Origin: Patescibacteria group bacterium | GTDB taxonomy: Bacteria > Patescibacteriota > Patescibacteriia > Magasanikbacterales > GWA2-37-8 | Direction: 5' to 3' | Length of the DNA: 64,000 bases | NCBI GenBank assembly: GCA_041651015.1 | Contig: JBAZKA010000005.1 | Span: forward strand, 1,326 to 65,325 | Shown: positions 37,497 through 63,666 of the stretch, in pieces | How positions within the stretch are numbered: the stretch's first letter is position 1 | How the letters are laid out: each line of letters begins with the position of its first letter | The notes under the pieces: generated by a model | What the model was told of the DNA's origin: nothing | Seen by the model: only the letters and a program-made list of their open reading frames with translations | Databases searched by the model: none | Position numbers and translations under genes: made by a program

Positions 37497-38171
37497 ATGG
37501 ACGAACCGCAAAACCGTTTTAGCAAAGAGCAGAAAATCGGCTTGGTTTTGCTGTCTTCTTTTGTCGTACTGGCGGTGACGCTCGGGTTGATTGAAATGCG
37601 TAATACCTTGTATAGTCCGTTTGCTTTGAATAATTCCATTCCGGCTATGATTGGGAGTGATGTGGATACGACCGACGCGTTGCGTTATCGTGATACCGAT
37701 GCTGACGGCCTGAATGATTTTGACGAATTATATGTTTATTCCACCAGCCCGTATTTGGCTGATACTGATTCGGACGGCTTGACCGACAAGCAAGAAGTTG
37801 AAGGTGGTAAAAATCCCAATTGCGCCGAAGGCAAAGATTGCAATGCGTCAATCGCGGAAAACGGTTCGGCCATAATCGCCACCAGTTCCACTGATGTGGC
37901 CGATACCAACACACTGTTTTCAAATTATGATGTGACATCAACCTTGGAAGCCATGCTCACTTCGCCGGATCAGATGAGAACTCTTTTGCTTGAATCCGGT
38001 TTGGCGCAATCAGTGGTGGATAAAATTTCCGATGATGATCTGACCAAAATGGCGTTGGAGATAATGTCTTCATCTACCATCTTGGATAGTATGGAAACCA
38101 CTTCCACTACAGTATCTGATGTGACGACCACGGCGAAATTTATCAATCAACTAATGAATGCTTCGCAATAA
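37497..38171 (+). CDS. Membrane-anchored protein with thrombospondin-type-3-like Ca-binding repeats
   Basis: N-terminal TM. DTDADGLNDFDE / DTDSDGLTDKQE repeats. Its 3' end overlaps the start of the giant gene. Confidence 0.55.
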   Translation: MDEPQNRFSKEQKIGLVLLSSFVVLAVTLGLIEMRNTLYSPFALNNSIPAMIGSDVDTTDALRYRDTDADGLNDFDELYVYSTSPYLADTDSDGLTDKQEVEGGKNPNCAEGKDCNASIAENGSAIIATSSTDVADTNTLFSNYDVTSTLEAMLTSPDQMRTLLLESGLAQSVVDKISDDDLTKMALEIMSSSTILDSMETTSTTVSDVTTTAKFINQLMNASQ

Positions 38172-44100: not shown

Positions 44101-46341
44101 ATGTGTTTGATTAATGCGCCGACCAACAGAAAGCGCTCCACTGCTTATCCTACTTTTAATATGGGAGGTGCCTCAATGCAGGCGGACTGGGGAAATTCCA
44201 CGGGTAGTCTTCAAGGTCCGAATGGTGAGGCGATTCTTTATTCCGGCTCAGCGACTGTTGTTTATAATTCTTTGGAAAATAGCATCGTCACCGGATGTTG
44301 GGACACGAGTGCTAATGCGTTTGATGCTATTTGGGGGTTGTCTATGTCAGATGGAGACGATTCGCAAGGTAAATATTGTCCAATAAATAAAAATACATTG
44401 AAAGAAGCCGGGTCAAATCTCGCTCGGATCAGTTTGCCGGTCGGGCAGACATATTTGCAGAGGAATGATATTGAGAGAATAGATGTTTATCTTGATAAAC
44501 GGTACTCTGGCGACGGTGGTGATGGTGCTGGTTGTAGTGACGGTTGGGTGAGTTTTTACAATGATTTACTTGACGAGAACGAGGATCAATCTTTTATCGT
44601 TAAAGAATGGTTTAGACCGGGTTGTACAAATTCAAGCTGGAGAAAAAAGAGTTTTGGTAGTACCCCTTATTCATTATTAACCGACTGGTATTCGTGGCAA
44701 TGGGAAGGGGGCAATCTCGACGGAGATGGTAATTGGGTTAAAGATAGCAGTATTGTGTACAATCTACAAAACGATACCTATGCGTCCATAACACAAAACA
44801 ATGATTCAGGCAATGGCACTGGTATTCGGATTATATTTGATTCCAAAAATAATTTCAGAGGTATCTGGGTTGATGGCGAAGATAACGCGTCTGGTAGTAC
44901 CGATATGGGATTTTTCTTTGTCATTACTCTACGTGATGGTCGTTGCGCGGAACAATTGCAAATTTCCGATGAAGATGATGAATATTTTGGTTTTAAACCA
45001 TTTACCGGAAGACTAGCACTTGGAGACTTATCTGTCGGTGGAGACTGGGCGGAGTTTGGATTGTCTGCCACTCGCACCAAAGAGATGGATAACCCAAATT
45101 ATGGTTTAAATAGTGATAGCTCACCGCGCACTCTTATCAATCCATTTGTTACGTTATTGGGCAAGTATGGTGCTAACGCCCACAGTCCGCAGGGTATCTC
45201 CGATCCAGATACGGCCATGACAATTCACGCTTCAGATTATGACGCCGGTGTGCCGTTGAGCGTAATGAGGGTGCAAGATGCACCAGCAAGCGAGTACGCG
45301 AGATTTTATGTTGAAAAAGTTAGTGACTGTGCGGCGAACCCGGGTGCACCATATTGTCAGATGCTTAAGCGAATGTTTGCTCGAGTTTATTCGGATAGAT
45401 TGCTGGTGCGCGTGTCGGACGGTGTTTACGCGTTCAAAGATGATCCGACGACATCCGATGGTACAATAGTGGTAAAAAACGGGACATCGGTAGATGACTT
45501 TGACTCTACTGCCGACGCTGCCAATCCGGCAACCGCAAAGACATTAAAATTAATTCTTTATCCGCCACGTGTGGCGGCTCCAACATCTGCCGGTTACGAG
45601 ATAGATGCAGTTGCAGTTAACGGACAAACATCCGGCAATGTGTACTTGGCATCTGGTGCGACTGCGGCGATTCAATTTTACGCGTGGGCTTCACCCAACC
45701 AAATGCCACTGCGCCGTGTCGCGGTCAGAAAAGGCGATGGCACGGATCCAGTAGCGGTTGAGAGCGAAAGTTTAAGTAATAAAAAACCGTCATGCAATAC
45801 AAAATTTTGTGATTGCAATCGCAATACGGGTACAGGTGGAGATGAATTTTGTATTCAGGACCTTAGTGAATTGATGCCTTGTAGTAATGATAGTGATTGC
45901 GACGGATTAACGAACAACACCGTATGCTCAGGCTCTTCCGCCTCCGGTTATACGACCTTTGGCTCGACTTCGGACACCGGCTGCAAAGCCGAACCCTATG
46001 ATTTCATTGTGGATTATTCTTGCCCAATGGGTGGCAGTGAAGGAGCAAAAGTTTATCCATCATCCGCCTCCACCTACGGCATAAATTGGAACACAGACAT
46101 TGTCGCCAATTTCGGTGATGTTCCTTACGTTTGCGCCTTCCAACCCAAAGTTCAGGTGTTGGATAATTGGGGTTGGTGCACTAGTCGAGCGCCAGGTACA
46201 AACGGTGGATGTAATTATTCTTCAAATGAATATGTGAATGGATACGGGTGTTATGCGGAGGATGTATATGATTATTGCGCTTTAAGTAAATCACAACCGT
46301 GGGTACTATATGGTGGTTACGTGGTCGTAGTGCCAATGTAA
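38158..46341 (+). CDS. Giant (2727 aa) Cys-rich extracellular/surface protein with polymorphic C-terminal module
   Basis: Uninterrupted 8.2-kb ORF. N-terminal signal/anchor (FGLSAILSIFVFVTIFGSLFFAP). Hundreds of Cys spaced as in disulfide-rich repeats. The C-terminal 125 aa are homologous to the downstream orphan ORF 47885-48259. Confidence 0.85.
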   Translation: MLRNNQRFMFFNTKKFGLSAILSIFVFVTIFGSLFFAPRPARAQMDANITNAFRAWQVKGTVQEVKQTLKEKAQFMFMTALMNGLNYFANKIAYDMGVWLASGDWGQGPFSSGKSFGSYMAQVAGDSLGEMLGSLSEDLGLNLCDLPDLRLDLALQLGFHFAYNEPKPKCSWQQLRAAYNPENVYSKYASREGLADRIGLGVNVKDTDMGIWFKSKETIDAYTEEQVAGASGEDARGEGISAMTEIISGKQVTPAAAMKQEMLAQTPSKQQEGRAADTRSMTNAALQKGATTVALNAVSTFVNTLLGTVVNNFVTKGMLPGGKTICNPGLSITGVGWNQCADSDSSDTLAANYYTSGSETDNRRAAQELFSELLAPKITTLENYDLATNMAECSEDNKSPDACVIDQSFMQILQQADLGDALTIKQAMERGLLHGDWKLISPNNAEETDKWTCAEEAYCYRNIKFLRQARILPVGFEMAAYIANASTPPSLSDVVNGFYDESSAYYHLINPQWVIKMPKMRCASYAYGAVAQDGVRVQECVDLQHCVGYNKDGTCQSWGYCMKEKPVWKFDAGYCDSIYSTCKAFTGADGDASYLTRTLDTTECNSDNVGCARYSRDKYYVNSSTVDWYSQLAVYNATDETFTNTGIHFNKSVSTCSAENDGCSAFKLASDNSTLLYLKKAPDYLGCYDADPSTAANSLALLNKKISNGVQWPMTLSGLNLIQPQDKKACANYAQVCLPEEVNCNYYTASYTGEKIPAKFTPAVVSDGLVTWNDQCDAVCNGYAAYQEMPSNYSSGQNLSYIIPSSGNSCIASQSGCTAFTNLNANSGGMEQKEYFSYLRLCALPDQTKQKNYTVYESSESGGYSIKTYTLVKNDSNNGPKQIFRDADEYAELAPLCSQTAYEAGTADPDCHQFIGDDASKYYAFLSKTIIATDQCTPYRLSSPELIALTSTDLRCAYDYDYYGVDRRAGSSTVEFKSNACYYMGTTVGTNGAGDTRTCNSNVESCRAYKGNAGNNVRLLLNEDFENADLTNWGVSASSASTVTIATSTESTQIDGHSLRVNVKTNSSAATAYAQLNGLPVTKGKAYTISFWAKGSAALKSVSLASADFEGSFTDSEINSSDVWKYYSFGPLNYNGSATTSILYLPLSATGGATQQLFIDNIRLTEVADYIYLVKNSLSVNALCDSDTSDNLPGEALGCTAYSDPLKNMFYLTGFNYLCREAAVGCTAVLDTYNTPDDPNAQAYNVWIAGASGGTASATVGGETFTCQVPTGETGCYTDIMGYTAAQLVAAGNVHLTSSTIYIPPDTTTSTPIYLVANQSATCKAENLGCEVLGKSTVSASGLSYKVDGILVVHYETFEETAVLNNPALYSDTLCKNEEAGCSAWTSGDSSYYFKKPNATCTYKTDKFISIEPPAAGVEIKSVNLKANSIGWVMQDTGICVRNELSSYGIVGSSIFGIGGFILNSGSHYMGRYCATDADCVIGTSTGTCKYVNQVPCYPASRKPSGEYQLWSSGNPVKYYNYVGTCPQEQSGCTEYVDHSSSDNNVCAMTGEVCTDDSDCETEGDTCVANEDSAYYLIDNEKLQAQEAACNGQVSQAEGCALLDNTNNPNKYWNTTSSYALSTSNDENLVTPVDKGNANDANTILKVKHDRECAEWAYCDFKQTYVDSETNETASRCYHLGVCQQASSAVGVSGRCAEGGVVTGSWLGKDKVLDKNYYQSLYSSWDSIDLSGYSIPFTYQIPDLRVRNVDDTNRLVYVTTTALCTDETDNGSACGSGGACYNGECLFNYIGPGNSVTSSRSISCRSYPEDSSPFSTSVLSDNTVWGDGGSSGGHLMSAIYKTGFENTNLCYDDSGELTNNKCDCSYDKFQTSGGDIFTQVGRSTASGYVCSGGSYNGKDCDGSDDIDTCGTGGTCSKVNSVSVMTGWQGYCMEKDLRQTINGTSNHRCLTWWPLELAPGTSDIWATDPSAGYEVGETDDRYMCLINAPTNRKRSTAYPTFNMGGASMQADWGNSTGSLQGPNGEAILYSGSATVVYNSLENSIVTGCWDTSANAFDAIWGLSMSDGDDSQGKYCPINKNTLKEAGSNLARISLPVGQTYLQRNDIERIDVYLDKRYSGDGGDGAGCSDGWVSFYNDLLDENEDQSFIVKEWFRPGCTNSSWRKKSFGSTPYSLLTDWYSWQWEGGNLDGDGNWVKDSSIVYNLQNDTYASITQNNDSGNGTGIRIIFDSKNNFRGIWVDGEDNASGSTDMGFFFVITLRDGRCAEQLQISDEDDEYFGFKPFTGRLALGDLSVGGDWAEFGLSATRTKEMDNPNYGLNSDSSPRTLINPFVTLLGKYGANAHSPQGISDPDTAMTIHASDYDAGVPLSVMRVQDAPASEYARFYVEKVSDCAANPGAPYCQMLKRMFARVYSDRLLVRVSDGVYAFKDDPTTSDGTIVVKNGTSVDDFDSTADAANPATAKTLKLILYPPRVAAPTSAGYEIDAVAVNGQTSGNVYLASGATAAIQFYAWASPNQMPLRRVAVRKGDGTDPVAVESESLSNKKPSCNTKFCDCNRNTGTGGDEFCIQDLSELMPCSNDSDCDGLTNNTVCSGSSASGYTTFGSTSDTGCKAEPYDFIVDYSCPMGGSEGAKVYPSSASTYGINWNTDIVANFGDVPYVCAFQPKVQVLDNWGWCTSRAPGTNGGCNYSSNEYVNGYGCYAEDVYDYCALSKSQPWVLYGGYVVVVPM

Positions 46342-49312: not shown

Positions 49313-49600
49313 ATGACTGCTACGCAAAAACAAATTAAAAGTGCTGTCTTACCCATATTAAAAAAATACGGTGTTTTAAAGTCTGCGCTTTTCGGATCGT
49401 TTGCCTCCGGTGAACAAAATAAAAAAAGTGATGTGGATATTTTAGTAAAGATGCCTCGCGGCAGTAGCTTGTTTGAATTGGTGGATTTACGTGTTGAGTT
49501 AAAAGATAAATTAAAACGTGATGTGGATCTTGTCACATATGAGTCAGTGCACCCTCGGCTTAAAGATAAAATTGCGGCATCATCCACCAGTATCTTATGA
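49313..49600 (+). CDS. Nucleotidyltransferase-family antitoxin (MntA-like)
   Basis: ALFGSFASGEQNKKSDVDILV minimal NTase motif (GS...DxD). Confidence 0.8.
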   Translation: MTATQKQIKSAVLPILKKYGVLKSALFGSFASGEQNKKSDVDILVKMPRGSSLFELVDLRVELKDKLKRDVDLVTYESVHPRLKDKIAASSTSIL

Positions 49601-49962
49601 AGAAAGATAAAGACACACAAGTATTTATTGAACATATTTTAGATTCCATTGAAGCGATTGAAAAATATATCGCCAATATGCCGTTTGAAGACTTTGCTAA
49701 AAATGGTTTAACTCAAGACGGCGTTTTCCGACGGCTGGAAATCATCGGTGAAGCGGTCAAAAATATACCCATAAGTTTTAGAAAAAATTATCCGGATATT
49801 CCTTGGCGAAAAATTGCCGGCATGCGCGATTTTTTAATTCATGAATATTTTGGGGTAGATATTAGATTGGTTTTTGAAACGGCAAGCGGGCGTTTACCAA
49901 AATTTAAACAACAAATTTTGGAAATTAAGTTTTCCGAACCGGCCTTGAAACTAAGGAAGTGA
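49597..49962 (+). CDS. HepT-like HEPN toxin (DUF86)
   Basis: R-x4-HxY motif (MRDFLIHEY). Overlaps mnt by 4 nt. Confidence 0.8.
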   Translation: MKKDKDTQVFIEHILDSIEAIEKYIANMPFEDFAKNGLTQDGVFRRLEIIGEAVKNIPISFRKNYPDIPWRKIAGMRDFLIHEYFGVDIRLVFETASGRLPKFKQQILEIKFSEPALKLRK

Positions 49963-51434: not shown

Positions 51435-54400
51435 ATGAATAATTCCCTCCTGAACAAGGGGAGATGGTTGTGGCAGAAAATTAAACCGCGAAGGCGGCTT
51501 GGTTTTGTTTCCATATTTTTGCTAATGTCGGTCTTTTTGTTCGCGATGTTTGTGGTGGGAATCCATCCGGCGTATGCCGATTTTGGCAGTACGCTTTCCG
51601 AGTGGTTAGGAAATTTAGTTTTGGGATTGGCGGCGACTTTCATGTCCATTACGGTTTTTATTTTGAAATTCGTCATTGAAATCGCCAGCTATAATCATTA
51701 TATCAACGCGCCGGCCGTCACTCTCGGCTGGGTGTTGGTGCGCGACGTCACCAACATGTTTTTTGTTTTGATTTTAATGGTGATCGCGTTTGGCACAGTT
51801 CTCGGCATAGAGCAATACGAATGGAAAAAATTATTGGTCAAGTTTGTCATGGCCGCCATACTGGTTAATTTTTCTCGTTTGATTTGCGGCGTCATCATTG
51901 ATGCGGCCCAAGTGTTTATGATGACTTTTATTTCCGGCGCGGCCGCGACCGCTGGCGGAAATTTGGTCAATGCTTTGCACATGAATGATATTTTAGCTTT
52001 TGCCACCGATGCCGACCCGAGCGCGTTGAGTACTGATATAAATGTTCTTGTTTCAGCAATAGTCGCTTGTATTTTTGCCTTTACCGCCATGGTGGTGATT
52101 GGCGCGTATCTACTCATGCTGATTGCACGCGTCATCGCGCTTTGGATTTGCATTATTTTGTCGCCGTTGGCTTTTGTGCTTGGCGTAATTCCCAAATTTC
52201 AATCTTACGCCAGCCAGTGGTGGACTGAATTTACCAACAATGTTTTGTCCGGGCCGGTGTTGGCATTTTTTTTATGGTTGGCTTTTGCCGTGGCCGGAGG
52301 CGCTAACATCCACGATGAATTCACCGGCGCCAATTCCGGCTATCCAATTACAGATGCGGAAACCGCCATGCAAGAGGCATCGACAGCCACCGGCGGCGAG
52401 CCGAGCATGAACCTTAACAAAGTTTTGCAATGGGAAAATTTAGCGAATTTTATTTTAGCGGCGGCATTGTTGCTGGCCGGCGTGAAAACCACGCAAAAAT
52501 TATCCGCGGCCGGAGCTGGTATGCTTGGCGCCGCGGCCGGCGCAGCCACTAAGTTTGCTTATGCGGCGTCCGGCGCCGCGGCCGGTTTGGCCGCCGCCAA
52601 GTGGACGGGGAAGACGGCAAAGGCCGTGGGAAAAGGTATTGCCATGAATGTGCCGTTAGTGGGAGGAAATGCATGGAAAGAACGGGGAGAAAATTTAGCG
52701 TTGAACGCGAAACTTGGGATGCAAGCAGGGAAGGATTTTTATAATAGACAAATACTTGAACGTGGGTCGCATGCCTTTGCTCGAACAAAGCCCGGCAAAT
52801 TCTTGGCAGCTGCTGGGGGTGTCGTTGGCCTGAATAAAGGAGATATTTCTAGTCAGTTTATGATTGGTACTAGGGCGGCGCAAATTAAAACGAAGAAAGA
52901 TATGCTGGAAAATCGTATTAAGCTTGCTGAAACATCTGTAAAGGAACCGGAAGATCTAAAACAAAAACAGGCTGATCTCAAGGCCAACGTTGAGCTCGGA
53001 AAACTAATAAAAGCCGGTGTTATTGCAAAACGTGATGAGCAGGCGTGGAAAAATCTTGAGGAGAAAATTGCGCCTGATAGTAAAGGTAGGGGTGAAAAAT
53101 TAGTTGACATGGCTGCCAGCATGCAAGCAAAGGCTGATTTGTTTGAATCTAAACACAAACAAGAACAACAAGTAAGGTTGTTATCCGCGAAAGAAGATGT
53201 TTTGCGGAAAAAAGCCGGTGAAACCGGCATTGGAGGCTACACGGTGGAAGCTGATAAAGCCAAAGCTGAACGCTTGGGGATTGAAAATGAAAAAATGGTG
53301 AAGGAGGCCGGCGGTATTGATAATTTAACTGATCAACAAAAATTAGAATTTCAAAAAAATAAACAATTTATTGATATTTCCGCGGCGCAAACAAAATTAA
53401 TTGAAGAACAAACTCAGGTCGCCGGTGAGCAAGCTAAACAGGTGTTGTTGACCGGTGCTGGCGAGGAATCCGGGCGCTTAGAAGGCATTCAAGGGCGCCA
53501 AGCTGAGTTGATGAAAGAAAAGGAGTTGATTACCCAAGATAATCGCGCGATTGAAGAAATTAGACAGCTAAAGCGTATAGAGGAGCTATTGCGGACAAGC
53601 GGAAGAATGCAAGATTTAAACAGCAGTTTGCATGGAAATAAAATTGAACTGGATGACGCGAAAATAGAAACCGATCGGGCGACTTCGGAACTAAACGCCA
53701 AAAGCTATGAGGGTAAAGGCCGAGATGATTTGGCGCGTTTGGAACACGCAAAATTTGCGAACAGTTATTTTAAGAAAATGCAGGAAAATTTTGCCGATTA
53801 TAGTTATAATGATTTTGCAACTGAAGCCCCGGCGCAATTTAAACGTGTTCAGGATGCCGCGGCAGCATATGATGGCGTGAAGGGGACAGGTAGTCCAGAC
53901 GAAGCCGAAAAAACGAAAGCGTACCAAAAAGAGGCGGCCAAAACCGCGAGCTTTGTAGCTCTGAGCATGCGTGACGCCTCAACTTACAAAGCAGTTGAAG
54001 ACGCGGCAACAAAGGTGATCCCTTACACCGGCGACAGGTCACCGGAAAACAGGCAAAATATTCTCGCCTCAATGATTAGCGGACGAGACATGAAAGGTAA
54101 GAATAGTGTTGAGCTTAATAGCGAATTAAGCGGTCTTAATAGAAATAATCAGCACCAAGTTAATGCCATGTTGAAAATTTTGCAAGACAACGCCAAGACA
54201 TTGGCCTCTAAGTCTGGCTATGCTTCAGTGGTATCTGGTGTCAAATATGATACGGTGAAGGGAAACTATTCTCTTGGTTATAATAAAGAAGATGCTGATT
54301 ATTATTCTACCCATGCCAATATGCGTGAGGCAACGAATGCCTACCACATAATCTATCAAGACAAGACAGGTGATCTCAACATCGACGTGCACAATGAAAA

Positions 54401-54659
54401 TGCTTTTATAAGTCAAGTTAAGAACGCGGATCAAAATAATGTGGGTCGCGTGTTCCTTCCCGCGTTAATGGCTGACTTGAATGAAAAAATGGAAGCCCTT
54501 GATCCTGCTAAGCTGGATGGATTCCTAAAACATGTAGCCGAAGGCATGACAGACGACAAAGCACTTAAAATTTTAATCAAACGCATGGAGAAAATTTTGA
54601 AAAAATCCGGTAAAACAGAGGCGGAAATTTTAAAGTATTGGAAAGATTCGCATAAGTAA
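51435..54659 (+). CDS. VirB6/TrbL-like polytopic membrane protein with about 700-aa C-terminal coiled-coil/charged extension
   Basis: About 330-aa N-terminal region with 6-7 TM helices in TrbL/VirB6-like spacing, Gly/Ala-rich hinge, then long Lys/Glu/Ala-rich alpha-helical tail. Confidence 0.6.
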   Translation: MNNSLLNKGRWLWQKIKPRRRLGFVSIFLLMSVFLFAMFVVGIHPAYADFGSTLSEWLGNLVLGLAATFMSITVFILKFVIEIASYNHYINAPAVTLGWVLVRDVTNMFFVLILMVIAFGTVLGIEQYEWKKLLVKFVMAAILVNFSRLICGVIIDAAQVFMMTFISGAAATAGGNLVNALHMNDILAFATDADPSALSTDINVLVSAIVACIFAFTAMVVIGAYLLMLIARVIALWICIILSPLAFVLGVIPKFQSYASQWWTEFTNNVLSGPVLAFFLWLAFAVAGGANIHDEFTGANSGYPITDAETAMQEASTATGGEPSMNLNKVLQWENLANFILAAALLLAGVKTTQKLSAAGAGMLGAAAGAATKFAYAASGAAAGLAAAKWTGKTAKAVGKGIAMNVPLVGGNAWKERGENLALNAKLGMQAGKDFYNRQILERGSHAFARTKPGKFLAAAGGVVGLNKGDISSQFMIGTRAAQIKTKKDMLENRIKLAETSVKEPEDLKQKQADLKANVELGKLIKAGVIAKRDEQAWKNLEEKIAPDSKGRGEKLVDMAASMQAKADLFESKHKQEQQVRLLSAKEDVLRKKAGETGIGGYTVEADKAKAERLGIENEKMVKEAGGIDNLTDQQKLEFQKNKQFIDISAAQTKLIEEQTQVAGEQAKQVLLTGAGEESGRLEGIQGRQAELMKEKELITQDNRAIEEIRQLKRIEELLRTSGRMQDLNSSLHGNKIELDDAKIETDRATSELNAKSYEGKGRDDLARLEHAKFANSYFKKMQENFADYSYNDFATEAPAQFKRVQDAAAAYDGVKGTGSPDEAEKTKAYQKEAAKTASFVALSMRDASTYKAVEDAATKVIPYTGDRSPENRQNILASMISGRDMKGKNSVELNSELSGLNRNNQHQVNAMLKILQDNAKTLASKSGYASVVSGVKYDTVKGNYSLGYNKEDADYYSTHANMREATNAYHIIYQDKTGDLNIDVHNENAFISQVKNADQNNVGRVFLPALMADLNEKMEALDPAKLDGFLKHVAEGMTDDKALKILIKRMEKILKKSGKTEAEILKYWKDSHK

Positions 54660-54667
54660 AACATATT

Positions 54668-55663
54668 ATGCAATCATTTCATCCAAAATTAATCGGTTCA
54701 AAAACATTTGAAGAATTGTTCAAGGATTTTTTTGAAACCGCGCGATATGATTCTGTGCAAATGGAGGTGACGAGATTGGAATTATTCAGTTTGTTTGGCG
54801 AGATGAGCATAACTGAGATTCAGGAGTATCGCCGGACTTATTGGCCATTTTATGTTTATGCCATTTGGTCAAATCCTTTGGATGTTCGCCCGGAAGTAAT
54901 GATAAAGAATATTGCGATTCAATTGCCCGATGCTGTGCGGCTGGGTTTTGATATTTTAGATAAAATTCTTTCATACGCGAATTTTCGTTTGACATTGGAG
55001 CCGGACATTCAATCATTTTTTGCCAAGACGCGCGACGCTTTGGAGAGATCCGACTGGCCGATCGGCGTATTGCCAAATGGTAAAATTTATACAATTGCCG
55101 ATTGCGTCAAAGAGGTTATGATGAATGAAAGTAGAGCGAGCAACAGTATGGAATATGCCGAGCTGTATCAGAAATTATCAAAGCTGATATTTCCAAACGG
55201 TTTAAATGATGAGTTGTATAAAAAAGAATATATTTATATTACGACTCACGAGGCTGTTGATAATTTGATCAAAATAATTACCGTGTTAACACAAAATTCA
55301 CCAGAGACCCTTACTCAATTAGTTGATCAATATGCACATCCGGAGATTTATGACCCTGATTATGGCATGAATATAAATATTAAAACTGAACCTGTGATGT
55401 CAAGTCAAGATGGCAAGCCTTCATCACCCATAACCCCACCCGCAAACCCTATGCCCCCAACTCCACCCCTCGTCAAACCCGCGCCCGCGGAAATCCGCGC
55501 GAAAATTGATGCCGCGTTTGAAAAAGACGCGCAAGGAAATTACAAAGATTTAGATGGTGTGTTTATTGTTTTGGGACGTGCGGCCGCTAAATACAACGAC
55601 CCAAAGATCGCCGAATTATATTATTTTGATGACAATGCCGGTGAGTTTAAATGGAATGTTTAA
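54668..55663 (+). CDS. Hypothetical protein with Pro-rich C-terminus (T4SS-cluster associated)
   Basis: 331 aa. PITPPANPMPPTPPLVKPAPA linker. Confidence 0.5.
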   Translation: MQSFHPKLIGSKTFEELFKDFFETARYDSVQMEVTRLELFSLFGEMSITEIQEYRRTYWPFYVYAIWSNPLDVRPEVMIKNIAIQLPDAVRLGFDILDKILSYANFRLTLEPDIQSFFAKTRDALERSDWPIGVLPNGKIYTIADCVKEVMMNESRASNSMEYAELYQKLSKLIFPNGLNDELYKKEYIYITTHEAVDNLIKIITVLTQNSPETLTQLVDQYAHPEIYDPDYGMNINIKTEPVMSSQDGKPSSPITPPANPMPPTPPLVKPAPAEIRAKIDAAFEKDAQGNYKDLDGVFIVLGRAAAKYNDPKIAELYYFDDNAGEFKWNV

Positions 55664-55664
55664 T

Positions 55665-56780
55665 ATGACAGATGAAGTTTTAATCCCAGTCAAAAAATTA
55701 GACGGCACGGTGGAAAAAATCACCATGGCCGAATTTCAGACTCGGCAAAAAAATAAACAGCGTGCCAAGACGGCCGTGGTAATTACGCAAAAACCAATTT
55801 CGCCGGCACAAACTGTCGTCATTCCCGCACCCACGACGCCAAAGACGGTTATCAATGAAAAAATTAAAGAAGAACCGGCGTTGGAAGAATTACCCAAGAC
55901 AACCGCTAATGCCCCGCGAGTCAGTCCGGATAGAAAAGCCGAGGCTGGGGAGATCGTTCGCAAATTAAATTTACAAATTTCATCTGATGCCAAAAATCGT
56001 TTGCTTGGTTTGGTTCAACTGCGCCTCAAAGATGTGCGCGGCGAGGAAGAAGTAAAAGAATGGCTCGTCCGTTCGGAAAATCAATATGGCATTGGTTTAG
56101 ATGCCGTGGCCGCGGATAAAGTTATCATGGCGGTTAATGATTTTATCAAAAAAAATATTCCCCAATCCGCTGAAGTTCCGGTTTTAAAAAAACCTCTCGG
56201 TGTGCCTAAAGCGCTTTTGAAAGAAGACCAAGAACCGTTCCCGGCCACATCATCCCCGATAAATTCGTTTGTGCATCGTAGCACGCCAGAGCCCCAAAGG
56301 GGCGAAGGTGGCCTTGGCTCGCCGAAGCAAAAAAGCGAAGGTGGCCGTAAATCTTTGGATGATTTGGTACGCGCCGAGTCCGTTAATATGGGTAATGATA
56401 TTTCCGGCCTGGTGGCGAAAAGAGAAATGCCGGCGCGGACAATGGTGCAAGATATTACGCCGGCCAAACCGGCCAATCTCGGGCCGGTGGAAGAAATTCG
56501 TTATTTCACGCTGACTGATTTTCGCCGGCTGTCCACCAACCCAAATGAAGCCGCCTCGCGTCTGGCGCAAAAATTTACGAATCTGCGGGACGAGTCGTAT
56601 ATTTTATTTATGAATGCTTTGGAAGCGTGGCGTTTGAGCCCGTTGTTTAATGATTATATTGGCGCTTCGGCCGCATCATTGAATATGAAAAAGAAAGTGG
56701 CGGAAAATATGGCTGATAAAAATAAAATTCAGATGAACGAAATTAAGGCCTTGATACAAATGGAGAAAGATTTGCTATAA
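55665..56780 (+). CDS. Hypothetical Lys/Pro-rich protein (T4SS-cluster associated)
   Basis: Start at MTDEVLIP (ATG 55665). Contains a GC-rich internal direct repeat (56290-56345; GEGGLGSPKQKSEGG). Confidence 0.5.
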   Translation: MTDEVLIPVKKLDGTVEKITMAEFQTRQKNKQRAKTAVVITQKPISPAQTVVIPAPTTPKTVINEKIKEEPALEELPKTTANAPRVSPDRKAEAGEIVRKLNLQISSDAKNRLLGLVQLRLKDVRGEEEVKEWLVRSENQYGIGLDAVAADKVIMAVNDFIKKNIPQSAEVPVLKKPLGVPKALLKEDQEPFPATSSPINSFVHRSTPEPQRGEGGLGSPKQKSEGGRKSLDDLVRAESVNMGNDISGLVAKREMPARTMVQDITPAKPANLGPVEEIRYFTLTDFRRLSTNPNEAASRLAQKFTNLRDESYILFMNALEAWRLSPLFNDYIGASAASLNMKKKVAENMADKNKIQMNEIKALIQMEKDLL

Positions 56781-56784
56781 TACT

Positions 56785-57222
56785 ATGGCGATGCAAACAC
56801 AATTTGTCGTGCCGCAATTCATTGATGTGGAAGACAAGATTTTTGGACCGGTGACGGCACGCCAGTTTGTGATTTTGTTGGTGTCCGGCTTGCTCATTGT
56901 ACTTGCTTATAAGTTGGCGGATTTTGCTTTATTTGTTTTTATCTTGGTGATATTGGGCGGCGGATCGCTGGTCATCGCTTTTGTCAAAGTCAACGGCCAA
57001 CCATTTCATTATGTAATTTTGAACATTATTCAGACATTGCGTCGTCCATCGCTCAGAATTTGGAATAAAGTTTTTGACACGGCGGATTTGAAACGCATAC
57101 GCGAAGAGGCGAAAGTAGTGGTGCCGGAAGCGGCTAAACCGATTCAGCGAATATCTTACAGCCGTTTGCGTGATTTATCCTTGACGGTCAATACCGGCGG
57201 ATATTATAAATCAGAAGACTAA
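56785..57222 (+). CDS. Small two-TM membrane protein, VirB3/PrgI-like by position and topology
   Basis: FGPVTARQFVILLVSGLLIVLAYKL...FVFILVILGGGSLVIAFV. Immediately precedes the VirB4 ORFs, as VirB3-type genes do. Confidence 0.4.
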   Translation: MAMQTQFVVPQFIDVEDKIFGPVTARQFVILLVSGLLIVLAYKLADFALFVFILVILGGGSLVIAFVKVNGQPFHYVILNIIQTLRRPSLRIWNKVFDTADLKRIREEAKVVVPEAAKPIQRISYSRLRDLSLTVNTGGYYKSED

Positions 57223-57224
57223 CT

Positions 57225-57911
57225 ATGAAAAATAATAATGCGGTCAAAAAACGCGCGGCCATCCCATCTTCACAAAAGAATTTGGCTTTGGCGGAAATTA
57301 AAAATGACACCATCTTGATGAAAGATGGGACTTTGCGCGCCGCTTTGGTCGTGTCCAGTATTAATTTTGCCCTCAAGAACGAGGATGAACAGCAGGCTAT
57401 TGTTAGCGCCTATGTTTCATTTTTGAACGGCTTGGACCATCCTTTACAAATTGTCATCCAATCTCGGCAACTAAATATTAAACCATATTTAGAAAAGTTG
57501 GCGCAAAAAGAACGCGAACAGCCCAACGAATTATTGCGCATGCAAATTGCCGACTATAGGTCCTTTGTCGGCGAGCTGGTCAGCCTGGGAAAAATTATGA
57601 GCAAAAATTTTTACGTGATTGTGCCATATGATCCGCTCTCAAATAAGAAACGCGGTTTTTGGGCGCGCGCGTCCGAAGTTTTAAACCCCGCCATCACCGT
57701 GCACCTGAAAGAAGAAAGATTTTTGAAACGAAAATATGATTTAGATATGCGCGTCCGCCAAATTGAATCTGGCCTCACCAGCATGGGTTTGGAAGTGGTG
57801 CGCTTGGATACGCAATCGTTGATTGAATTATTTTATTCAACTTACAACCCGGACATTTCATTGTCCGAGCCGCTCGCGCCAATCGGGGATTTTAATATAG
57901 AAAACGCCTGA
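57225..57911 (+). CDS. VirB4/TrbE-family ATPase, N-terminal domain encoded as a separate ORF
   Basis: ILMKDGTLRAALVVSSINFALKNEDEQQAIVSAYVSFLNGLDHPLQIVIQSRQLNIKPYL, ...NFYVIVPYDP..., ...EVVRLDTQSLIELFYSTYNPD. This matches the canonical N-terminus of Gram-positive-type VirB4 (PrgJ/TcpF class). Confidence 0.7.
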   Translation: MKNNNAVKKRAAIPSSQKNLALAEIKNDTILMKDGTLRAALVVSSINFALKNEDEQQAIVSAYVSFLNGLDHPLQIVIQSRQLNIKPYLEKLAQKEREQPNELLRMQIADYRSFVGELVSLGKIMSKNFYVIVPYDPLSNKKRGFWARASEVLNPAITVHLKEERFLKRKYDLDMRVRQIESGLTSMGLEVVRLDTQSLIELFYSTYNPDISLSEPLAPIGDFNIENA

Positions 57912-57916
57912 TTAAT

Positions 57917-59797
57917 ATGGCCTTCAAACCATCATCAATAAATAAAAAAGAAGAAAAAAAATCAACCGGGCGTTTAGCCATGGAAACTTCGGCCATCAAA
58001 CAGAGTACGGCCGAAGAAATGGCCACGCTGGAAGAGGAGCGGATTTATCGCGAGGGCGTAATTTCCATTCGTGATTTAGTGGCGCCGTCCGCGTTTCGCG
58101 TGGAATCAAGTTTTGTTCAGCTCGGCGATGTTTTTTGCCGTACGCTTTTCATCACCGCGTATCCGCGCTACATCTCCATCGGTTGGGCCTCGCCGATTAT
58201 CAACATGTCGGCCACGATGGATGTGGGCATGTTTTTCTATCCGATTAAATCCGCGATAATTTTGAAACAATTAAAAAATAAAGTCGGCGCCTTGGAGGCG
58301 CAAATAAATTCCGATACTGAAAAGGGCGCCCCGCGCGACCCGATTCGCGAAACGGCTTTGCGCGATATAGAACAATTGCGCGACAACCTGACTCAAGGAA
58401 CCGAACACTTTTTCCAATTTTGTTTTTATGCCACGGTTTATGCTAAGAGCAAGGAAGAATTGGACCGGACATCCGAAGATATAGAAAATATTTTTGGCGG
58501 CAAACTAATAATTACGCGTAAGGTTTTGTATCAAGCCGAGCAAGGCTTTAATTCCACTTTGCCGATTGCGAACGACGAACTTTTTATTTCTTTCAACATG
58601 AATTCGTCGCCGATTGCCGCCTCGTTCCCGTTTATCTCGGCCGAGCTGACTTCGGATGATGGTATTTTGTACGGTATCAATCGCCACAACAATAGTTTGA
58701 TTTTGTTTGATAGATTTTCCCTGCAAAACGCCAATATGGTGGTCTTTGCCACCTCGGGCGCGGGCAAAAGTTATACTATTAAATTGGAAATTCTGCGCAC
58801 GATGATGATGGGTGTGGACGTGATTGTCATTGACCCGGAAATGGAATACAAACATTTGAGCGACGCGGTTGGGGGGACGTATATCAATATTTCGCTTTCA
58901 TCCGAAGCTAAGATCAATCCTTTTGATTTGCCTCGTCCGATGGGGATGGAAATTTCCACCGAGGATGTCATCCGGAGCGCGGTGATTACCGTTAAAGGTT
59001 TACTCCGCATCATGCTTGGCGGTTTATCCGTGGAGCAGGACGCGATTATTGATCGGGCTTTGATTGAAGCGTTTGCCAAAAAAGATATTACGCCGGATGC
59101 GGATTTGGCCACCGTTCGTCCGCCGATTATGCAGGATTTGGTGGAAGTTTTGGAAGGCATGCAAGGTTCGGGCGAGTTGGTGCTCAAATTGCAAAAATAC
59201 ACTGATGGCACATTTGCCGGCTTGTTTAATTCGCCGACCAATGTGGATATGAAAAATCAATTGGTGGTATTTTCAGTCCGAGATTTGGAAGAAGAACTTC
59301 GTCCGATTGCCATCTATACCATTATCAACTACATTTGGAACGTGGTGCGGTCCGAACGCAAAAAAAGAATTCTGGTGATTGATGAGGCTTGGTGGCTGAT
59401 GATGCATGAGGACTCGGCGAAATTTATTTTTTCTCTGGTCAAACGCGCGCGTAAATATTATTTGGGCGTCACCACCATCACTCAGGATGTAAACGACTTT
59501 TTGAAGTCTCAATACGGACAAGCGATCGTCACGAACTCGGCTTTACAGTTATTACTTCGCCAGTCGCCGGCTTCCATTGATTTGATTCAAAAAGTATTTG
59601 TCTTGACCGACAGTGAAAAATATCTATTATTGGAATCGGGTGTGGGCGAAGGGATTTTCTTTGCCGGACTAAAGCATGCGGCTATCAAAGTGGTGGCGTC
59701 ATACACCGAAGACCAAATTGTCACCACCAATCCTGAACAGCTTTTGGCCATAGAAAAAGCCAAAAAAGAATTTTCCGCCCAAGGCGGATCAGCTTAG
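57917..59797 (+). CDS. VirB4/TrbE-family conjugal transfer ATPase, central and C-terminal ATPase part
   Basis: RTLFITAYPRYISIGWASPIINMSATMD. Walker A FATSGAGKSYTIK. Walker B ILVIDEAWWLM. Different frame from 57225-57911, separated by TGA + 5 nt. Confidence 0.85.
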   Translation: MAFKPSSINKKEEKKSTGRLAMETSAIKQSTAEEMATLEEERIYREGVISIRDLVAPSAFRVESSFVQLGDVFCRTLFITAYPRYISIGWASPIINMSATMDVGMFFYPIKSAIILKQLKNKVGALEAQINSDTEKGAPRDPIRETALRDIEQLRDNLTQGTEHFFQFCFYATVYAKSKEELDRTSEDIENIFGGKLIITRKVLYQAEQGFNSTLPIANDELFISFNMNSSPIAASFPFISAELTSDDGILYGINRHNNSLILFDRFSLQNANMVVFATSGAGKSYTIKLEILRTMMMGVDVIVIDPEMEYKHLSDAVGGTYINISLSSEAKINPFDLPRPMGMEISTEDVIRSAVITVKGLLRIMLGGLSVEQDAIIDRALIEAFAKKDITPDADLATVRPPIMQDLVEVLEGMQGSGELVLKLQKYTDGTFAGLFNSPTNVDMKNQLVVFSVRDLEEELRPIAIYTIINYIWNVVRSERKKRILVIDEAWWLMMHEDSAKFIFSLVKRARKYYLGVTTITQDVNDFLKSQYGQAIVTNSALQLLLRQSPASIDLIQKVFVLTDSEKYLLLESGVGEGIFFAGLKHAAIKVVASYTEDQIVTTNPEQLLAIEKAKKEFSAQGGSA

Positions 59798-59827: not shown

Positions 59828-60421
59828 ATGACCACACTTCGTTCCCGAATATTTATTCTCATCAGTTTGATTGTTCTCATAATATTGGCCATCAGCATTG
59901 GCTTGATTGTGATTTCCAAGAAAAAACAGGCCGCTACTGTGGCCGAGACAACTCCAACCACGACTGCCGGCACGATTGATTCCACGAATTTTCCGGCGCA
60001 AATTACCACGCCGGCCACGGTTATTCCTTCCGGCACGACCGTAAAGCCGGCCACCACTGAAGAAACCATGAAAAATGCGGCTAAACAATTGGCTAAAATT
60101 TTTGTGGAGCGGTATGGCTCATATTCATCGGACGCAAGCGGTGAAAATATCCGTTCGGTGGAACCATTGGTGACGAAAGATTTGTGGGCAATCTTGAGCC
60201 AGCGCTTGAACGTAAAATACAACGGTGATTTTATCGGCGTCACCACCAAGGTTATCGCAACCAATGTGACGGATTTTTCAGCGTCCAGCGCAACAGTTGA
60301 ACTTAATTCCCAGAGGACGACCACCAAGGGTGCTACCGTGGCCGAGAGCACTCAAGCGGCGACGGTTAAACTGGTTAAATCCGGTGATAACTGGCTGGTG
60401 GATGATATCAAGTGGAAGTAA
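59828..60421 (+). CDS. Thr-rich membrane-anchored protein (possible VirB8-like periplasmic-domain protein; weak)
   Basis: N-terminal TM, Thr/Ala-rich linker, about 110-aa globular C-terminal domain. Confidence 0.45.
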   Translation: MTTLRSRIFILISLIVLIILAISIGLIVISKKKQAATVAETTPTTTAGTIDSTNFPAQITTPATVIPSGTTVKPATTEETMKNAAKQLAKIFVERYGSYSSDASGENIRSVEPLVTKDLWAILSQRLNVKYNGDFIGVTTKVIATNVTDFSASSATVELNSQRTTTKGATVAESTQAATVKLVKSGDNWLVDDIKWK

Positions 60422-60535: not shown

Positions 60536-61054
60536 ATGAGGAAAAAATTATTGGTCGCAATTCTAATTATCGCGTTGCTCGTGTTGGTCGGCCTAATTAC
60601 CTGGCAATTTTACGGTCGTTCGTGGTGGGAAATAAAAAAAGAAAAGATTTCTATTGGTTTGTCTGAGCCAAATTTTCCTTGGCGCGATAGAACTCAAGAT
60701 GAATTAAATACACTATATCCACAAATTAAAAACGCCGATGTGGCGACTCGGACCACGCCCGAGCAAACGTATGCCAAATTTAGAGAAGGTTTGAAAAATA
60801 ATGATTTGCCAACTGTATTGGATCAATTATTCAAAGATTCTTCGCGCTATGAATCAAATGTCGCGGCTATCTCTAAGGCGTATAATGAAAATAAATTTAC
60901 TTCAATTTATGAAAAATATCCGGAGGTGATAACAAGTACTCTACAGGGTGATTCGCTGGCGCAGTATGTATTTATATATAACAACGGGGCATCTTCGCAT
61001 CATGTTGATTTCAATAAAAATAGCAGCGGAGATTGGAAAATAACGCAATATTAA
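60536..61054 (+). CDS. Membrane-anchored hypothetical protein
   Basis: N-terminal TM plus about 140-aa domain. Preceded by a cluster of GC hairpins (60440-60517). Confidence 0.5.
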   Translation: MRKKLLVAILIIALLVLVGLITWQFYGRSWWEIKKEKISIGLSEPNFPWRDRTQDELNTLYPQIKNADVATRTTPEQTYAKFREGLKNNDLPTVLDQLFKDSSRYESNVAAISKAYNENKFTSIYEKYPEVITSTLQGDSLAQYVFIYNNGASSHHVDFNKNSSGDWKITQY

Positions 61055-61065
61055 TAATATATTAT

Positions 61066-63666
61066 ATGAGGAGGGTAATTTTCTTTGCCGTATTGATTGT
61101 TATAATTGTATCCATAGCAACTATATCTAAACAGGCAAGTTCCTTTGATACTTATGTGGCGCACCCGCATTTGACCGAGGCGGCAATAAATTTATTTAAT
61201 CAAAAAGCGGGCAATAAAATAAACGATGAAGAAAAACAAAATATTATTCAAGGGTCAATTGATGAGGATACACCGGCTCGTTGGATGAATCATTTTTATA
61301 ACCCGAATACGAACAAGGGGTTATATGGTTTTTCCTCAGCTAAAAAATGGGTCAATTATCCAGACTCGCAAGAAATGTACGCTGTCGGCGACCAATCATG
61401 GGACGCGGCTTTATATGCCTATGCGGATAACGATTATAATACGGCCTTTTTGGCTTTGGGGCATGTTTTGCATTTGATTGAAGATATGGCGGTGCCGGCC
61501 CACACACGTCTTGATTCGCATCCCGAGGGCGACCCGTTGGAATCATGGGCCGAAAAATATAATCCAGGTTTTGCAAGAGAAGATATAGAATATTACGATA
61601 ATTTAGATGCATATTTTTATAATTTAGCCAGTATTTCAAATAATAATTTTTTTAGTGAAGATACGATAGATAAGAAAGATATAAATCTAAATAATATTAA
61701 AGGAGTAATATATAGTGGCGTTCCGCTAAATTGTGTCCAAGAATTATATGATAATAAGAAATATTGTAAAATAGCCGTTGAAGAAGATCTCGTTGACTCA
61801 AATAATAATAAATATTTTATAACAGATAAAATTAACTCCGACTACTATTCCATTCTCGCGCCAAAAGCCGTATCATACGCGGCCGGAGTAATCCAATTAT
61901 TTTTTGAACAAGGCGAGGCAACACGCGCTAAACATGATGCAATTAGAGCCAAGTATAACGCGTATACAAATGCCTTAACAAAATTATTTATTAATCAAAA
62001 CGGGAAACTTGTTTCCGCAGTTGACCTTTTGAAAAATCCGCAAACCTCGCAAAAGGTCGCTGATGTAATTATCCAATCGGTCAATAAAACTCAGGCGGAA
62101 ACCACCAAAGAAATTATCAAGATCTTAACTCCGGCCACCACGACAAAAACTGCCGATGTATTGGGTGAAAAAATTATTCCGCCTTTGGAAAATGATGTAT
62201 CTTCAGCTACCTCAACCACAGATGATTCCGTCAAAACAATATATTTATTTACCGGTTCGCCCGCTTATGTTTTTGAACCATGGCCGGCTTTGATTTTTGA
62301 TTCAATATTTTCTTCAACGCTTTATACTTCGTCAACATTGGTCTCGGTATTTGGCGAGTGCGCCAGCGGGACACAATCAATTTTTGTATATCGCTCGGCC
62401 GAGTCATCGTCAACTCCTGACTATATGGCGAACGCCACTACCACGATAAATAATATTAACTGGTCGTCAGAACTAATTCCGCAATACGGCATCAATTTAT
62501 ATTATTTTTCCGCGCTCGGCGATGATGGACGTCCGACTTCGTCGGCCGTTGGGCCGGCGCAAATCATTTTAGATTACTTTGCTCCGTCGTCCACCGCGCT
62601 CGCGGCCGAAATAATTTCCACGTCCACCACTTCCACTGTAATTCATTTAAATCTTTCGGCCGAAGAAAATATCTCTGTTCCAGTTGCGTATGATTTGGAT
62701 TTTTCGGCCAGCGGCACTGAATGGGCTAACCTTCTATCAGTATCCACTAGTACATTTTATGATTTTACGGCGACCAGTTCGGGCGATTATGTGTTTCGTT
62801 TGCGGGCAAGCGACGCGCTTGGCAACGTGTCTGACTATGTATTCGCGACGACCACTGTGGAATTAGGACCGATTGAATATGAGTACATCCATCTGAGCGG
62901 GGAACAAATTGATGATGAATTAATTTTAACCGCGACCGGCAGTCCGTATATTTTGGAGCATTATATTGTCCCGGCTGGTAAAATTTTACGGCTTCAACCC
63001 GGCACAATAGTCAAAGGATTAAACCGCGCTTCGTATATGGAAATATATGGTTCAATGTATGTTGAAGGGGCGGGGAGCGGCCGCGTTGCGTTTACGTCAG
63101 TCCAAGATAGAAGTTTTGGCGATGATAGAACCAACACGATGACTCTTGGCACAAACAATGAACCAGCAGCGTGGGATTGGGGTGGCCTGATATTCTATGG
63201 CGGTAGTTATGGCGAGATAAACTACGCAGATTTTCGTTATAGCGGTTCAGACCCGTTCCTGTGCCTAACCGCGCGGGCTACCTGTGGTTTCTATAGTAAA
63301 ACAATTTATGCCGGCGATGGCGTCATCTTGTCAATTGATAATTCCACCTTTTCATACGGCGGCAACTTGTATATTAAAGCGGAATTTTATCAATCAATTC
63401 CGGAAGCGAACTCAATTTCCATAACCAATACTATTTTTGATGGCGCTAATTCCTATAGTAATTACGGTTCCGGAATTGGCGGAATATATATTGTACGCGG
63501 TGCGTTGCATTTAGATAATGTGCAATTTTTAAATTTAGAATATGGAATATATTCCGACTCGCGTGATTGGAATTGGCCGGCGATCACAATAAACAATGTT
63601 TCATCGGCGAATTTCATTAACGTGACAACGCCGGTTTATCCGGAGGGAATATTGACGCTTGAGTGA
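61066..63666 (+). CDS. Membrane-anchored zinc-dependent phospholipase C (PLC/nuclease P1 fold)-like protein with C-terminal beta-helix region
   Basis: YVAHPHLTEAAI..., HFYNPNTNKG (compare B. cereus PLC HFYDPDNGKTY), ALGHVLHLIEDMAVPAHT (compare LGLSLHYLGDVNQPMHA). C-terminal Gly/Asn/Ser-rich repeats typical of parallel beta-helix. Start at internal ATG 61066. Confidence 0.65.
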   Translation: MRRVIFFAVLIVIIVSIATISKQASSFDTYVAHPHLTEAAINLFNQKAGNKINDEEKQNIIQGSIDEDTPARWMNHFYNPNTNKGLYGFSSAKKWVNYPDSQEMYAVGDQSWDAALYAYADNDYNTAFLALGHVLHLIEDMAVPAHTRLDSHPEGDPLESWAEKYNPGFAREDIEYYDNLDAYFYNLASISNNNFFSEDTIDKKDINLNNIKGVIYSGVPLNCVQELYDNKKYCKIAVEEDLVDSNNNKYFITDKINSDYYSILAPKAVSYAAGVIQLFFEQGEATRAKHDAIRAKYNAYTNALTKLFINQNGKLVSAVDLLKNPQTSQKVADVIIQSVNKTQAETTKEIIKILTPATTTKTADVLGEKIIPPLENDVSSATSTTDDSVKTIYLFTGSPAYVFEPWPALIFDSIFSSTLYTSSTLVSVFGECASGTQSIFVYRSAESSSTPDYMANATTTINNINWSSELIPQYGINLYYFSALGDDGRPTSSAVGPAQIILDYFAPSSTALAAEIISTSTTSTVIHLNLSAEENISVPVAYDLDFSASGTEWANLLSVSTSTFYDFTATSSGDYVFRLRASDALGNVSDYVFATTTVELGPIEYEYIHLSGEQIDDELILTATGSPYILEHYIVPAGKILRLQPGTIVKGLNRASYMEIYGSMYVEGAGSGRVAFTSVQDRSFGDDRTNTMTLGTNNEPAAWDWGGLIFYGGSYGEINYADFRYSGSDPFLCLTARATCGFYSKTIYAGDGVILSIDNSTFSYGGNLYIKAEFYQSIPEANSISITNTIFDGANSYSNYGSGIGGIYIVRGALHLDNVQFLNLEYGIYSDSRDWNWPAITINNVSSANFINVTTPVYPEGILTLE

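Follow-up and report, generated by a model that had tools for sequence, protein, structure and literature searches.

A probable two-subunit VirB4, encoded by a TrsD-like gene and an adjoining ATPase gene, in a chromosomal type IV secretion locus of Patescibacteria

Introduction

In the Patescibacteria, the most abundant component of type IV secretion systems (T4SSs) is TrsD, a protein said to be distantly homologous to the N-terminal part of VirB4, and its gene usually adjoins virB4 (Quinonero-Coronel et al. 2025, Microb Genom, PMC12102498). With MPF_FATA hidden Markov model profiles, 2,272 TrsD homologues were found in 2,221 Patescibacteria assemblies, 1,664 of them near virB4; outside the phylum, TrsD is confined to the pGO1 subclass of MPF_FATA (PMC12102498). 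Here we describe two neighbouring open reading frames, ORF1 and ORF2, in a 64,000-nucleotide (nt) stretch of contig JBAZKA010000005.1 from a Patescibacteria group bacterium (the whole stretch is called the window below), which together span a VirB4 ATPase and very probably encode a natural two-subunit form of it, belonging to a chromosomal, monoderm-type (MPF_FATA-like) T4SS of Magasanikbacteria-like Patescibacteria.

In the same publication, TrsD is described as a component without an assigned function, the TrsD homologue of Ca. Southlakia epibionticum ML1 is listed as essential, and the Gracilibacteria homologues are unlinked to virB4 (PMC12102498). The T4SS itself is reported as indispensable for the epibiotic growth of Patescibacteria (Wang et al. 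2023, cited both in PMC12102498 and in a 2025 FEMS review, PMC12857230). For the homology between TrsD and the VirB4 N-terminus, PMC12102498 refers to Guglielmini et al. 2014 (PMC4027160), from whose main text the name "TrsD" is absent, possibly standing in its figures or supplements.

A sequence-only reading of the window had noticed VirB4 encoded as two ORFs and had offered three explanations for it, namely a genuinely split VirB4, a programmed frameshift or stop readthrough, and a sequencing indel that pseudogenises the ATPase. The analysis below bears out the first of these and refutes the other two. What that reading missed is that ORF1 is a known TrsD/TraD-type protein and that the architecture had already been described for Patescibacteria (PMC12102498).

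Results

Layout of the locus and the junction

ORF1 (57225..57911, forward strand) is 228 amino acids (aa) long, starts with ATG and ends in a TGA at 57909–57911, and is followed after a 5-nt spacer, "ttaat" (57912–57916), by the ATG of the 626-aa ORF2 (57917..59797, forward strand). The boundaries given in that reading, a TGA and 5 nt between a stop at 57911 and a restart with its own ATG at 57917 in a different frame, held when the ORF coordinates were checked (57225 mod 3 = 0; 57917 mod 3 = 2). In the three-frame translation, the frame of ORF2 has a TAA stop just 8 codons ahead of its ATG, and the frame of ORF1, if read through the TGA, runs into a TAA after 10 codons. The split is a deterministic feature of the sequence, so that chance is not at issue. 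The TGA is a genuine stop in this organism, because release factor 2 (RF2; prfB) is encoded in the window (463 bits versus a cutoff of 370) and because ORF1 homologues in relatives end in TAA or TAG at the same position.

A PrgI family gene ends 2 nt upstream of ORF1, and the gaps within this tightly packed operon measure 2–8 nt (56780/56785, 57222/57225, 57911/57917). The features discussed in the following sections are:

56785..57222, forward strand: PrgI family (VirB3-like) membrane protein (Pfam PF12666, E = 8.8e-10, 39.4 bits, cutoff 27)
57225..57911, forward strand: ORF1, TrsD-like or "TraC-like" protein, very probably a free-standing N-terminal subdomain of VirB4 (from NCBIfam, the Pfam annotation of an identical protein, and a fold match)
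57909..57916, forward strand: junction, ORF1 TGA plus 5-nt spacer before the ORF2 ATG (sequence inspection)
57917..59797, forward strand: ORF2, VirB4-like ATPase without the first N-terminal subdomain (NCBIfam conju_CD1110)
57917..58048, forward strand: ORF2 aa 1–44, conserved MAFKP start followed by a variable charged tail, opposite the connector of single-chain VirB4 in the alignment
58049..58654, forward strand: ORF2 aa 45–246, rest of the VirB4 N-terminal domain, aligning with a fused 789-aa VirB4 from residue 202
58655..59725, forward strand: ORF2 aa 247–603, VirB4 C-terminal RecA-like ATPase domain (phmmer versus 4AG5)
58748..58771, forward strand: Walker A, ATSGAGKS, ORF2 aa 278–285
59372..59386, forward strand: Walker B, LVIDE, ORF2 aa 486–490

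The peptides that had been quoted as VirB4-like were likewise located, with ILMKDG, INFALKNEDEQ, LQIVIQSR and ELFYSTYNPD in ORF1 and RTLFITAYPRYISIGW in ORF2, and the Walker A and B motifs noted for the second half are present in ORF2 as listed above.

ORF1 resembles the first N-terminal subdomain of VirB4

Both in size (~200–230 aa being expected of the family) and in its place between a VirB3-like gene and a VirB4-like ATPase gene, ORF1 agrees with TrsD/TraD proteins. It matches the NCBIfam TrsD/TraD model NF041427 over positions 25–184 of 201 (E = 5.9e-8, 32.8 bits; the curated cutoff of 200 is not reached), and it also matches segments of single-chain VirB4 models, namely positions 103–233 of 894 in VirB4_plasma (Mbov_0397 VirB4) and positions 20–95 of 752 in conju_CD1110. 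The sole Pfam match in our local scan was a sub-threshold one to the N-terminal part of TraC_F_IV (19.7 versus 28.1 bits); precomputed annotation places PF26593.2 (TraC-like) on a database protein, P0001, that is 100% identical to ORF1 over 100% of its length, and on all of its best 120 homologues.

The AlphaFold2 model of ORF1, built from 64 sequences, has a mean predicted local distance difference test (pLDDT) score of 85.5. When this model was compared with the Protein Data Bank (PDB) using Foldseek, the best 14 matches were all TrwK/VirB4 chains of R388 (probability 1.00, E from 1.5e-4 to 4e-3), and no significant match was obtained outside the TrwK/VirB4 chains. Searches of the PDB sequences with ORF1, both as a single query and as a profile, returned nothing meaningful; TrwK was detected by fold comparison only. 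At the sequence level, BLASTP aligns ORF1 aa 3–123 with aa 5–126 of a fused Paenibacillus VirB4 (30% over ~120 aa).

ORF2 carries the remainder of the N-terminal domain and the ATPase domain

ORF2 scores 355.9 bits against NCBIfam conju_CD1110, above the cutoff of 325, and covers model positions 159–728 of 752; the corresponding spans are 238–725 of 792 for VirB4_CagE and 275–719 of 800 for F-type TraC. Pfam places P-loop_TraG (4.8e-30), AAA_10 and DUF87 on it. As expected of a VirB4/TraC/TrbE ATPase, it has a C-terminal RecA-like P-loop domain with both Walker motifs, and aa 247–603 match the crystal structure of the Thermoanaerobacter VirB4 C-terminal domain (PDB 4AG5) with a phmmer E-value of 2.5e-47. 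The preceding segment, aa 45–246, is the part that meets conju_CD1110 from position 159 and VirB4_CagE from position 238. In the consensus of the ORF2 family, the MAFKP start and a TLEEERxYREG motif are kept and positions 6–35 are variable.

Together the two ORFs are collinear with single-chain VirB4

Since ORF1 matches the N-terminal part of the models that is absent from ORF2, the two ORFs together are collinear with single-chain VirB4. BLASTP aligns ORF2 aa 45–584 with aa 202–748 of the 789-aa fused VirB4 encoded on a Paenibacillus urinalis plasmid, and in an alignment of concatenated pairs with this fused protein the junction lies opposite a short connector (columns ~230–295), with ~20 residues at the ORF1 C-terminus and ~44 at the ORF2 N-terminus remaining mostly unmatched. 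The first ~40 aa of ORF2, for which an alignment to the inter-domain linker had been proposed as a check, thus lie opposite this short connector, and the BLASTP match begins only at aa 45. Judged from these alignments, the chain break falls after the first N-terminal subdomain of VirB4. The VirB4-specific N-terminal domain is present, yet divided between ORF1 and ORF2 aa 45–246, and in place of a single polypeptide of about 750–900 aa with both domains there are two ORFs, each with its own start and stop.

The split is conserved among relatives

In a set of 5.8 billion proteins, ORF1 has 3946 homologues at E ≤ 1e-3. The best 120 of these are all 217–245 aa long with 70–100% identity, and their names, where given, are Magasanikbacteria or Patescibacteria. 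Clustered to 50%-identity representatives, the family comprises 2064 clusters, the best 150 of which are all at most 452 aa long, none reaching the length of VirB4. The best 120 homologues of ORF2 are all 620–650 aa long, and PF26593 TraC-like is found in none of them. Long-contig relatives have a TraC-like protein of 226–228 aa and a VirB4 of 622–623 aa, and the gene order PrgI, TraC-like, VirB4 is kept in loci L001–L004, L024 and L025.

A scan of genome contigs gave 16 loci, single-protein patterns being limited to close relatives. The pair is split without exception in 18 distinct loci, with spacers of −1, 3 (five loci), 4 (two), 5, 7, 8 (two), 10, 14, 15 (two), 27 and 100 nt, all ≤100 nt. 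ORF2 lies in frame 0 relative to ORF1 in 8 of the loci, in frame +1 in 5 and in frame +2 in 5, and in 17 of these loci its first residues are MAF(K/R)P. The impression that both halves look intact is borne out by their strong conservation in every relative (70–90% identity across species), and the junction of the window recurs without a single base change in two independent assemblies, one by Logan of SRR8542065 and one of the JGI metagenome 3300014204.

The longest spacer, 100 nt from the stop of the trsD-like gene to the MAFKP start of virB4, is found in L020 (4146..4245); the other loci range from −1 to 27 nt. Some distant TrsD-like members carry N-terminal extensions of 90–220 aa or C-terminal ones of up to ~200 aa (P0122, P0134, P0155, P0267, P0270 and P0140, P0187, P0192), which means that the boundary of the free-standing subunit varies across the phylum; those extended at the N-terminus are possibly VirB3–TrsD fusions. 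The public metagenome-assembled genomes (MAGs) of L008, L010–L014, L016, L017 and L020, whose loci are 70–82% identical to the window, bear the title "uncultured Gammaproteobacteria bacterium", which for loci of the Patescibacteria type looks like a taxonomic mislabel.

Neighbouring genes in the window

Inner-membrane partners of the kind expected in a T4SS (VirB3, VirB6) accompany the pair, with the PrgI/VirB3-like gene directly upstream and a VirB6 assignment that is tentative. The latter concerns the gene at the head of the conserved cluster:

51435..54659, forward strand: 1074-aa ORF, tentatively VirB6/TrbL-like (weak match to the CD3337/EF1877 mobilome membrane protein, E = 0.0018)

This ORF has no Pfam match; its 1051-aa orthologue at the syntenic position in L003/L004 matches PF04610 (TrbL) weakly. 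The PrgI–TrsD–VirB4 core is flanked by ORFs to which no Pfam or NCBIfam family could be assigned, and genes of similar size occupy the same positions in L001–L004:

54668..55663, forward strand: flanking ORF, upstream
55554..56780, forward strand: flanking ORF, upstream
59828..60421, forward strand: flanking ORF, downstream, with an N-terminal hydrophobic segment
60536..61054, forward strand: flanking ORF, downstream, with an N-terminal hydrophobic segment

The two downstream ORFs could be VirB8-like or pilin-like components of the kind discussed in the literature. Beyond them, an 877-aa ORF (61033..63666, forward strand) has a weak N-terminal match to zinc-dependent phospholipase C that stays below the cutoff (E = 1.7e-4), and may be a secreted effector or an enzyme that degrades the envelope. 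A gene for a HepT-like ribonuclease toxin (49597..49962, forward strand; PF01934, E = 1.7e-27) lies a short way upstream of the T4SS cluster, and also upstream is a giant 2727-aa ORF (38158..46341, forward strand), in which CBM_4_9 (aa 1019–1145) is the only recognised domain and which may encode a surface or adhesion protein. In a 590-aa ORF (34852..36624, forward strand), a Sua5/YciO/YrdC domain (t6A synthesis) at the N-terminus is fused to a DUF4015 domain, a putative glycosyl hydrolase (E = 4e-102), at the C-terminus, and this combination is unusual. The prfB gene (33774..34850, forward strand) is one uninterrupted ORF of 358 aa that covers model positions 2–353, and it therefore lacks the +1 programmed frameshift that occurs in the prfB of many bacteria.

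Discussion

Alternative explanations

A single virB4 could have been turned into a pseudogene by an indel introduced in sequencing or assembly, or by a recent mutation, and homopolymer-rich A runs do lie close by, at 57938–57960. These runs are, however, inside ORF2, 3' of its conserved start; the junction is identical in the Logan and JGI assemblies; and both halves are strongly conserved across species. A disruption of this kind would be restricted to the window, whereas all relatives examined are split (18 of 18 loci, together with thousands of homologues of matching lengths), and an indel artefact is incompatible with such universality, leaving this explanation with next to no weight. A programmed −1 (or +2) frameshift, or readthrough of the stop, that fuses ORF1 and ORF2 is a little less remote and still very unlikely. 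It is suggested by the 5-nt distance between ORFs in different frames and by the A-rich stretch AGAAAAC before the ORF1 stop. Among close relatives, however, the ORF2 frame takes all three values, including 8 loci in frame 0 with an in-frame stop, and the spacers vary as well, which is incompatible with a conserved frameshift or readthrough signal. There is also no canonical X_XXY_YYZ heptamer in the 18-nt stretch of the junction where both frames are open, a TAA follows 10 codons past the TGA, RF2 is encoded in the window, and ORF2 has a conserved ATG and MAFKP N-terminus of its own.

More serious is the idea of an accessory factor, in which the TrsD-like protein would be a diverged paralogue of the VirB4 N-terminus with an independent role, such as adaptor or regulator, rather than the missing piece of VirB4. 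Such a role would suit a protein that PMC12102498 leaves without an assigned function, whose Gracilibacteria homologues are unlinked to virB4, whose similarity to the VirB4 N-terminus is weak (the 30% over ~120 aa given above), and some of whose relatives carry extra N- or C-terminal extensions. Against this, ORF2 is without exactly the segment that ORF1 resembles (conju_CD1110 positions 1 to ~158; VirB4_CagE positions 1 to ~237), which makes the relation complementary rather than duplicative, and the two genes are adjacent, with spacers of at most 100 nt, in all 18 loci. On balance, we consider an accessory factor improbable.

A natural two-subunit VirB4 is, in our judgement, very probably what the locus encodes: homologues in their thousands are split in the same manner, and ORF1 and ORF2 are collinear with single-chain VirB4. 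Several points nevertheless weigh against this reading. ORF1 scores far under the curated cutoffs of the TrsD and TraC_F_IV models, and its homology is correspondingly remote; the AlphaFold2 model of ORF2 (33 homologues) is of low confidence (pLDDT 41, predicted template modelling score 0.26), and is unusable because the alignment is too shallow (78–90% identity); no Shine-Dalgarno-like motif is visible ahead of the ORF2 ATG, where one was looked for; and the physical association of ORF1 with ORF2, like their coupled expression at ~1:1, is something that we infer.

Proposed arrangement and its implications

In the arrangement that we favour, ORF1, as a TrsD-type protein, would supply the first N-terminal subdomain of VirB4, and ORF2 would supply what remains of the N-terminal domain, together with the RecA-like ATPase domain that forms the hexamer. 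The genes for the PrgI/VirB3-like, TrsD-like and VirB4 proteins would most likely be co-expressed by translational coupling, as suggested by gaps of 2–8 nt combined with the missing Shine-Dalgarno-like motif before the ORF2 ATG. The two chains would then come together at the membrane, beside the VirB3-like protein, and form the equivalent of VirB4 by non-covalent assembly. If the TrwK N-terminal domain, as seen in structures of the R388 system, is taken as a guide, TrsD may dock to the VirB3/inner-membrane complex in this assembly.

It is conceivable, if on present evidence doubtful, that the breakpoint shared by the pairs of Patescibacteria, of staphylococcal pGO1/pSK41 and of Bacillota plasmids such as that of Pontibacillus marks one ancient two-subunit VirB4 lineage, in which TrsD would be a dissociable subunit and its production as a separate chain would permit the ATPase hexamer to dock to a VirB3/VirB6 platform in a regulated or sub-stoichiometric way. 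If this were true, the separate expression of TrsD would be a control point that single-chain VirB4 does not have. As TrsD has been published only as a component without an assigned function, showing it to be a detachable N-terminal subdomain of VirB4 would advance the mechanistic picture modestly. For annotation, it follows that ORF1 and ORF2 should not be merged, called a frameshifted pseudogene or reported as a case of recoding; the fitting names are TrsD-like VirB4 N-terminal-domain protein for ORF1 and VirB4 for ORF2. Because the T4SS has been reported essential for epibiotic growth, knowing that VirB4 comes in two chains would be useful for structural modelling and genetics.

Comparison with known systems

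Single-chain VirB4 proteins of the CD1110 family, such as that of Paenibacillus urinalis (WP_047914418, 789 aa), are in their entirety collinear with ORF1 followed by ORF2, and TrwK/VirB4 of R388 shares the predicted fold of ORF1. Whereas these proteins are single polypeptides, the chain in the window breaks within the connector that follows the first N-terminal subdomain, and this connector is expanded, with a ~20-aa tail on ORF1 and a ~44-aa tail on ORF2 compared with ~20 aa in the fused protein.

Two-gene relatives are also found on plasmids. In pSK41 of Staphylococcus aureus, trsD (227 aa) follows a VirB3-like gene (hypothetical/TrsC) and lies directly upstream of the gene for the DUF87 ATPase TrsE (672 aa), the same order as in the window. 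The proteins are very remote in sequence (ORF1 versus pSK41 TrsD, E about 1e-7 and 26% over 94 aa; ORF2 versus TrsE, 23% and 160 bits), and the breakpoint is the same as that of pSK41 TrsD/TrsE, since ORF2 aa 53 aligns with TrsE aa 36. Staphylococcal pGO1/pSK41 encode a plasmid conjugation apparatus with a relaxase and VirD4, in contrast to the window locus, which is chromosomal and lies among housekeeping genes. A split pair is found, too, on the 897.8-kb plasmid of Pontibacillus sp. ALD_SL1, where WP_207531476 (274 aa, annotated as hypothetical) precedes WP_207531477 (621 aa, a CD1110-family VirB4). Compared with the proteins of the window, the ATPase scores 395 bits with 34% identity and the TrsD-like part 100 bits with 27%, which makes the Pontibacillus pair the nearest to that of the window, and its ATPase the closest non-Patescibacteria match to ORF2, among the proteins compared (fused Paenibacillus protein, 216 bits; TrsE, 160 bits). 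The Pontibacillus genes overlap by 11 nt and belong to a Bacillota plasmid host, whereas the genes in the window are spaced.

The two-gene architecture of TrsD and VirB4 is, then, already known: it is the norm of the phylum, has a precedent on plasmids, is covered by dedicated Pfam and NCBIfam families, and has been published. Closest of all are the Patescibacteria TrsD and VirB4 proteins of PMC12102498, which represent the same phylum-level system, chromosomal and with TrsD beside virB4 and PrgI/VirB3 and VirB6-like genes, and Magasanikbacteria MAG relatives equal the window in gene order and protein sizes. Nothing substantive differs between our locus and that description; what is added here is that the adjacent VirB4 is without the matching N-terminal segment and that the breakpoint is placed as in pSK41.

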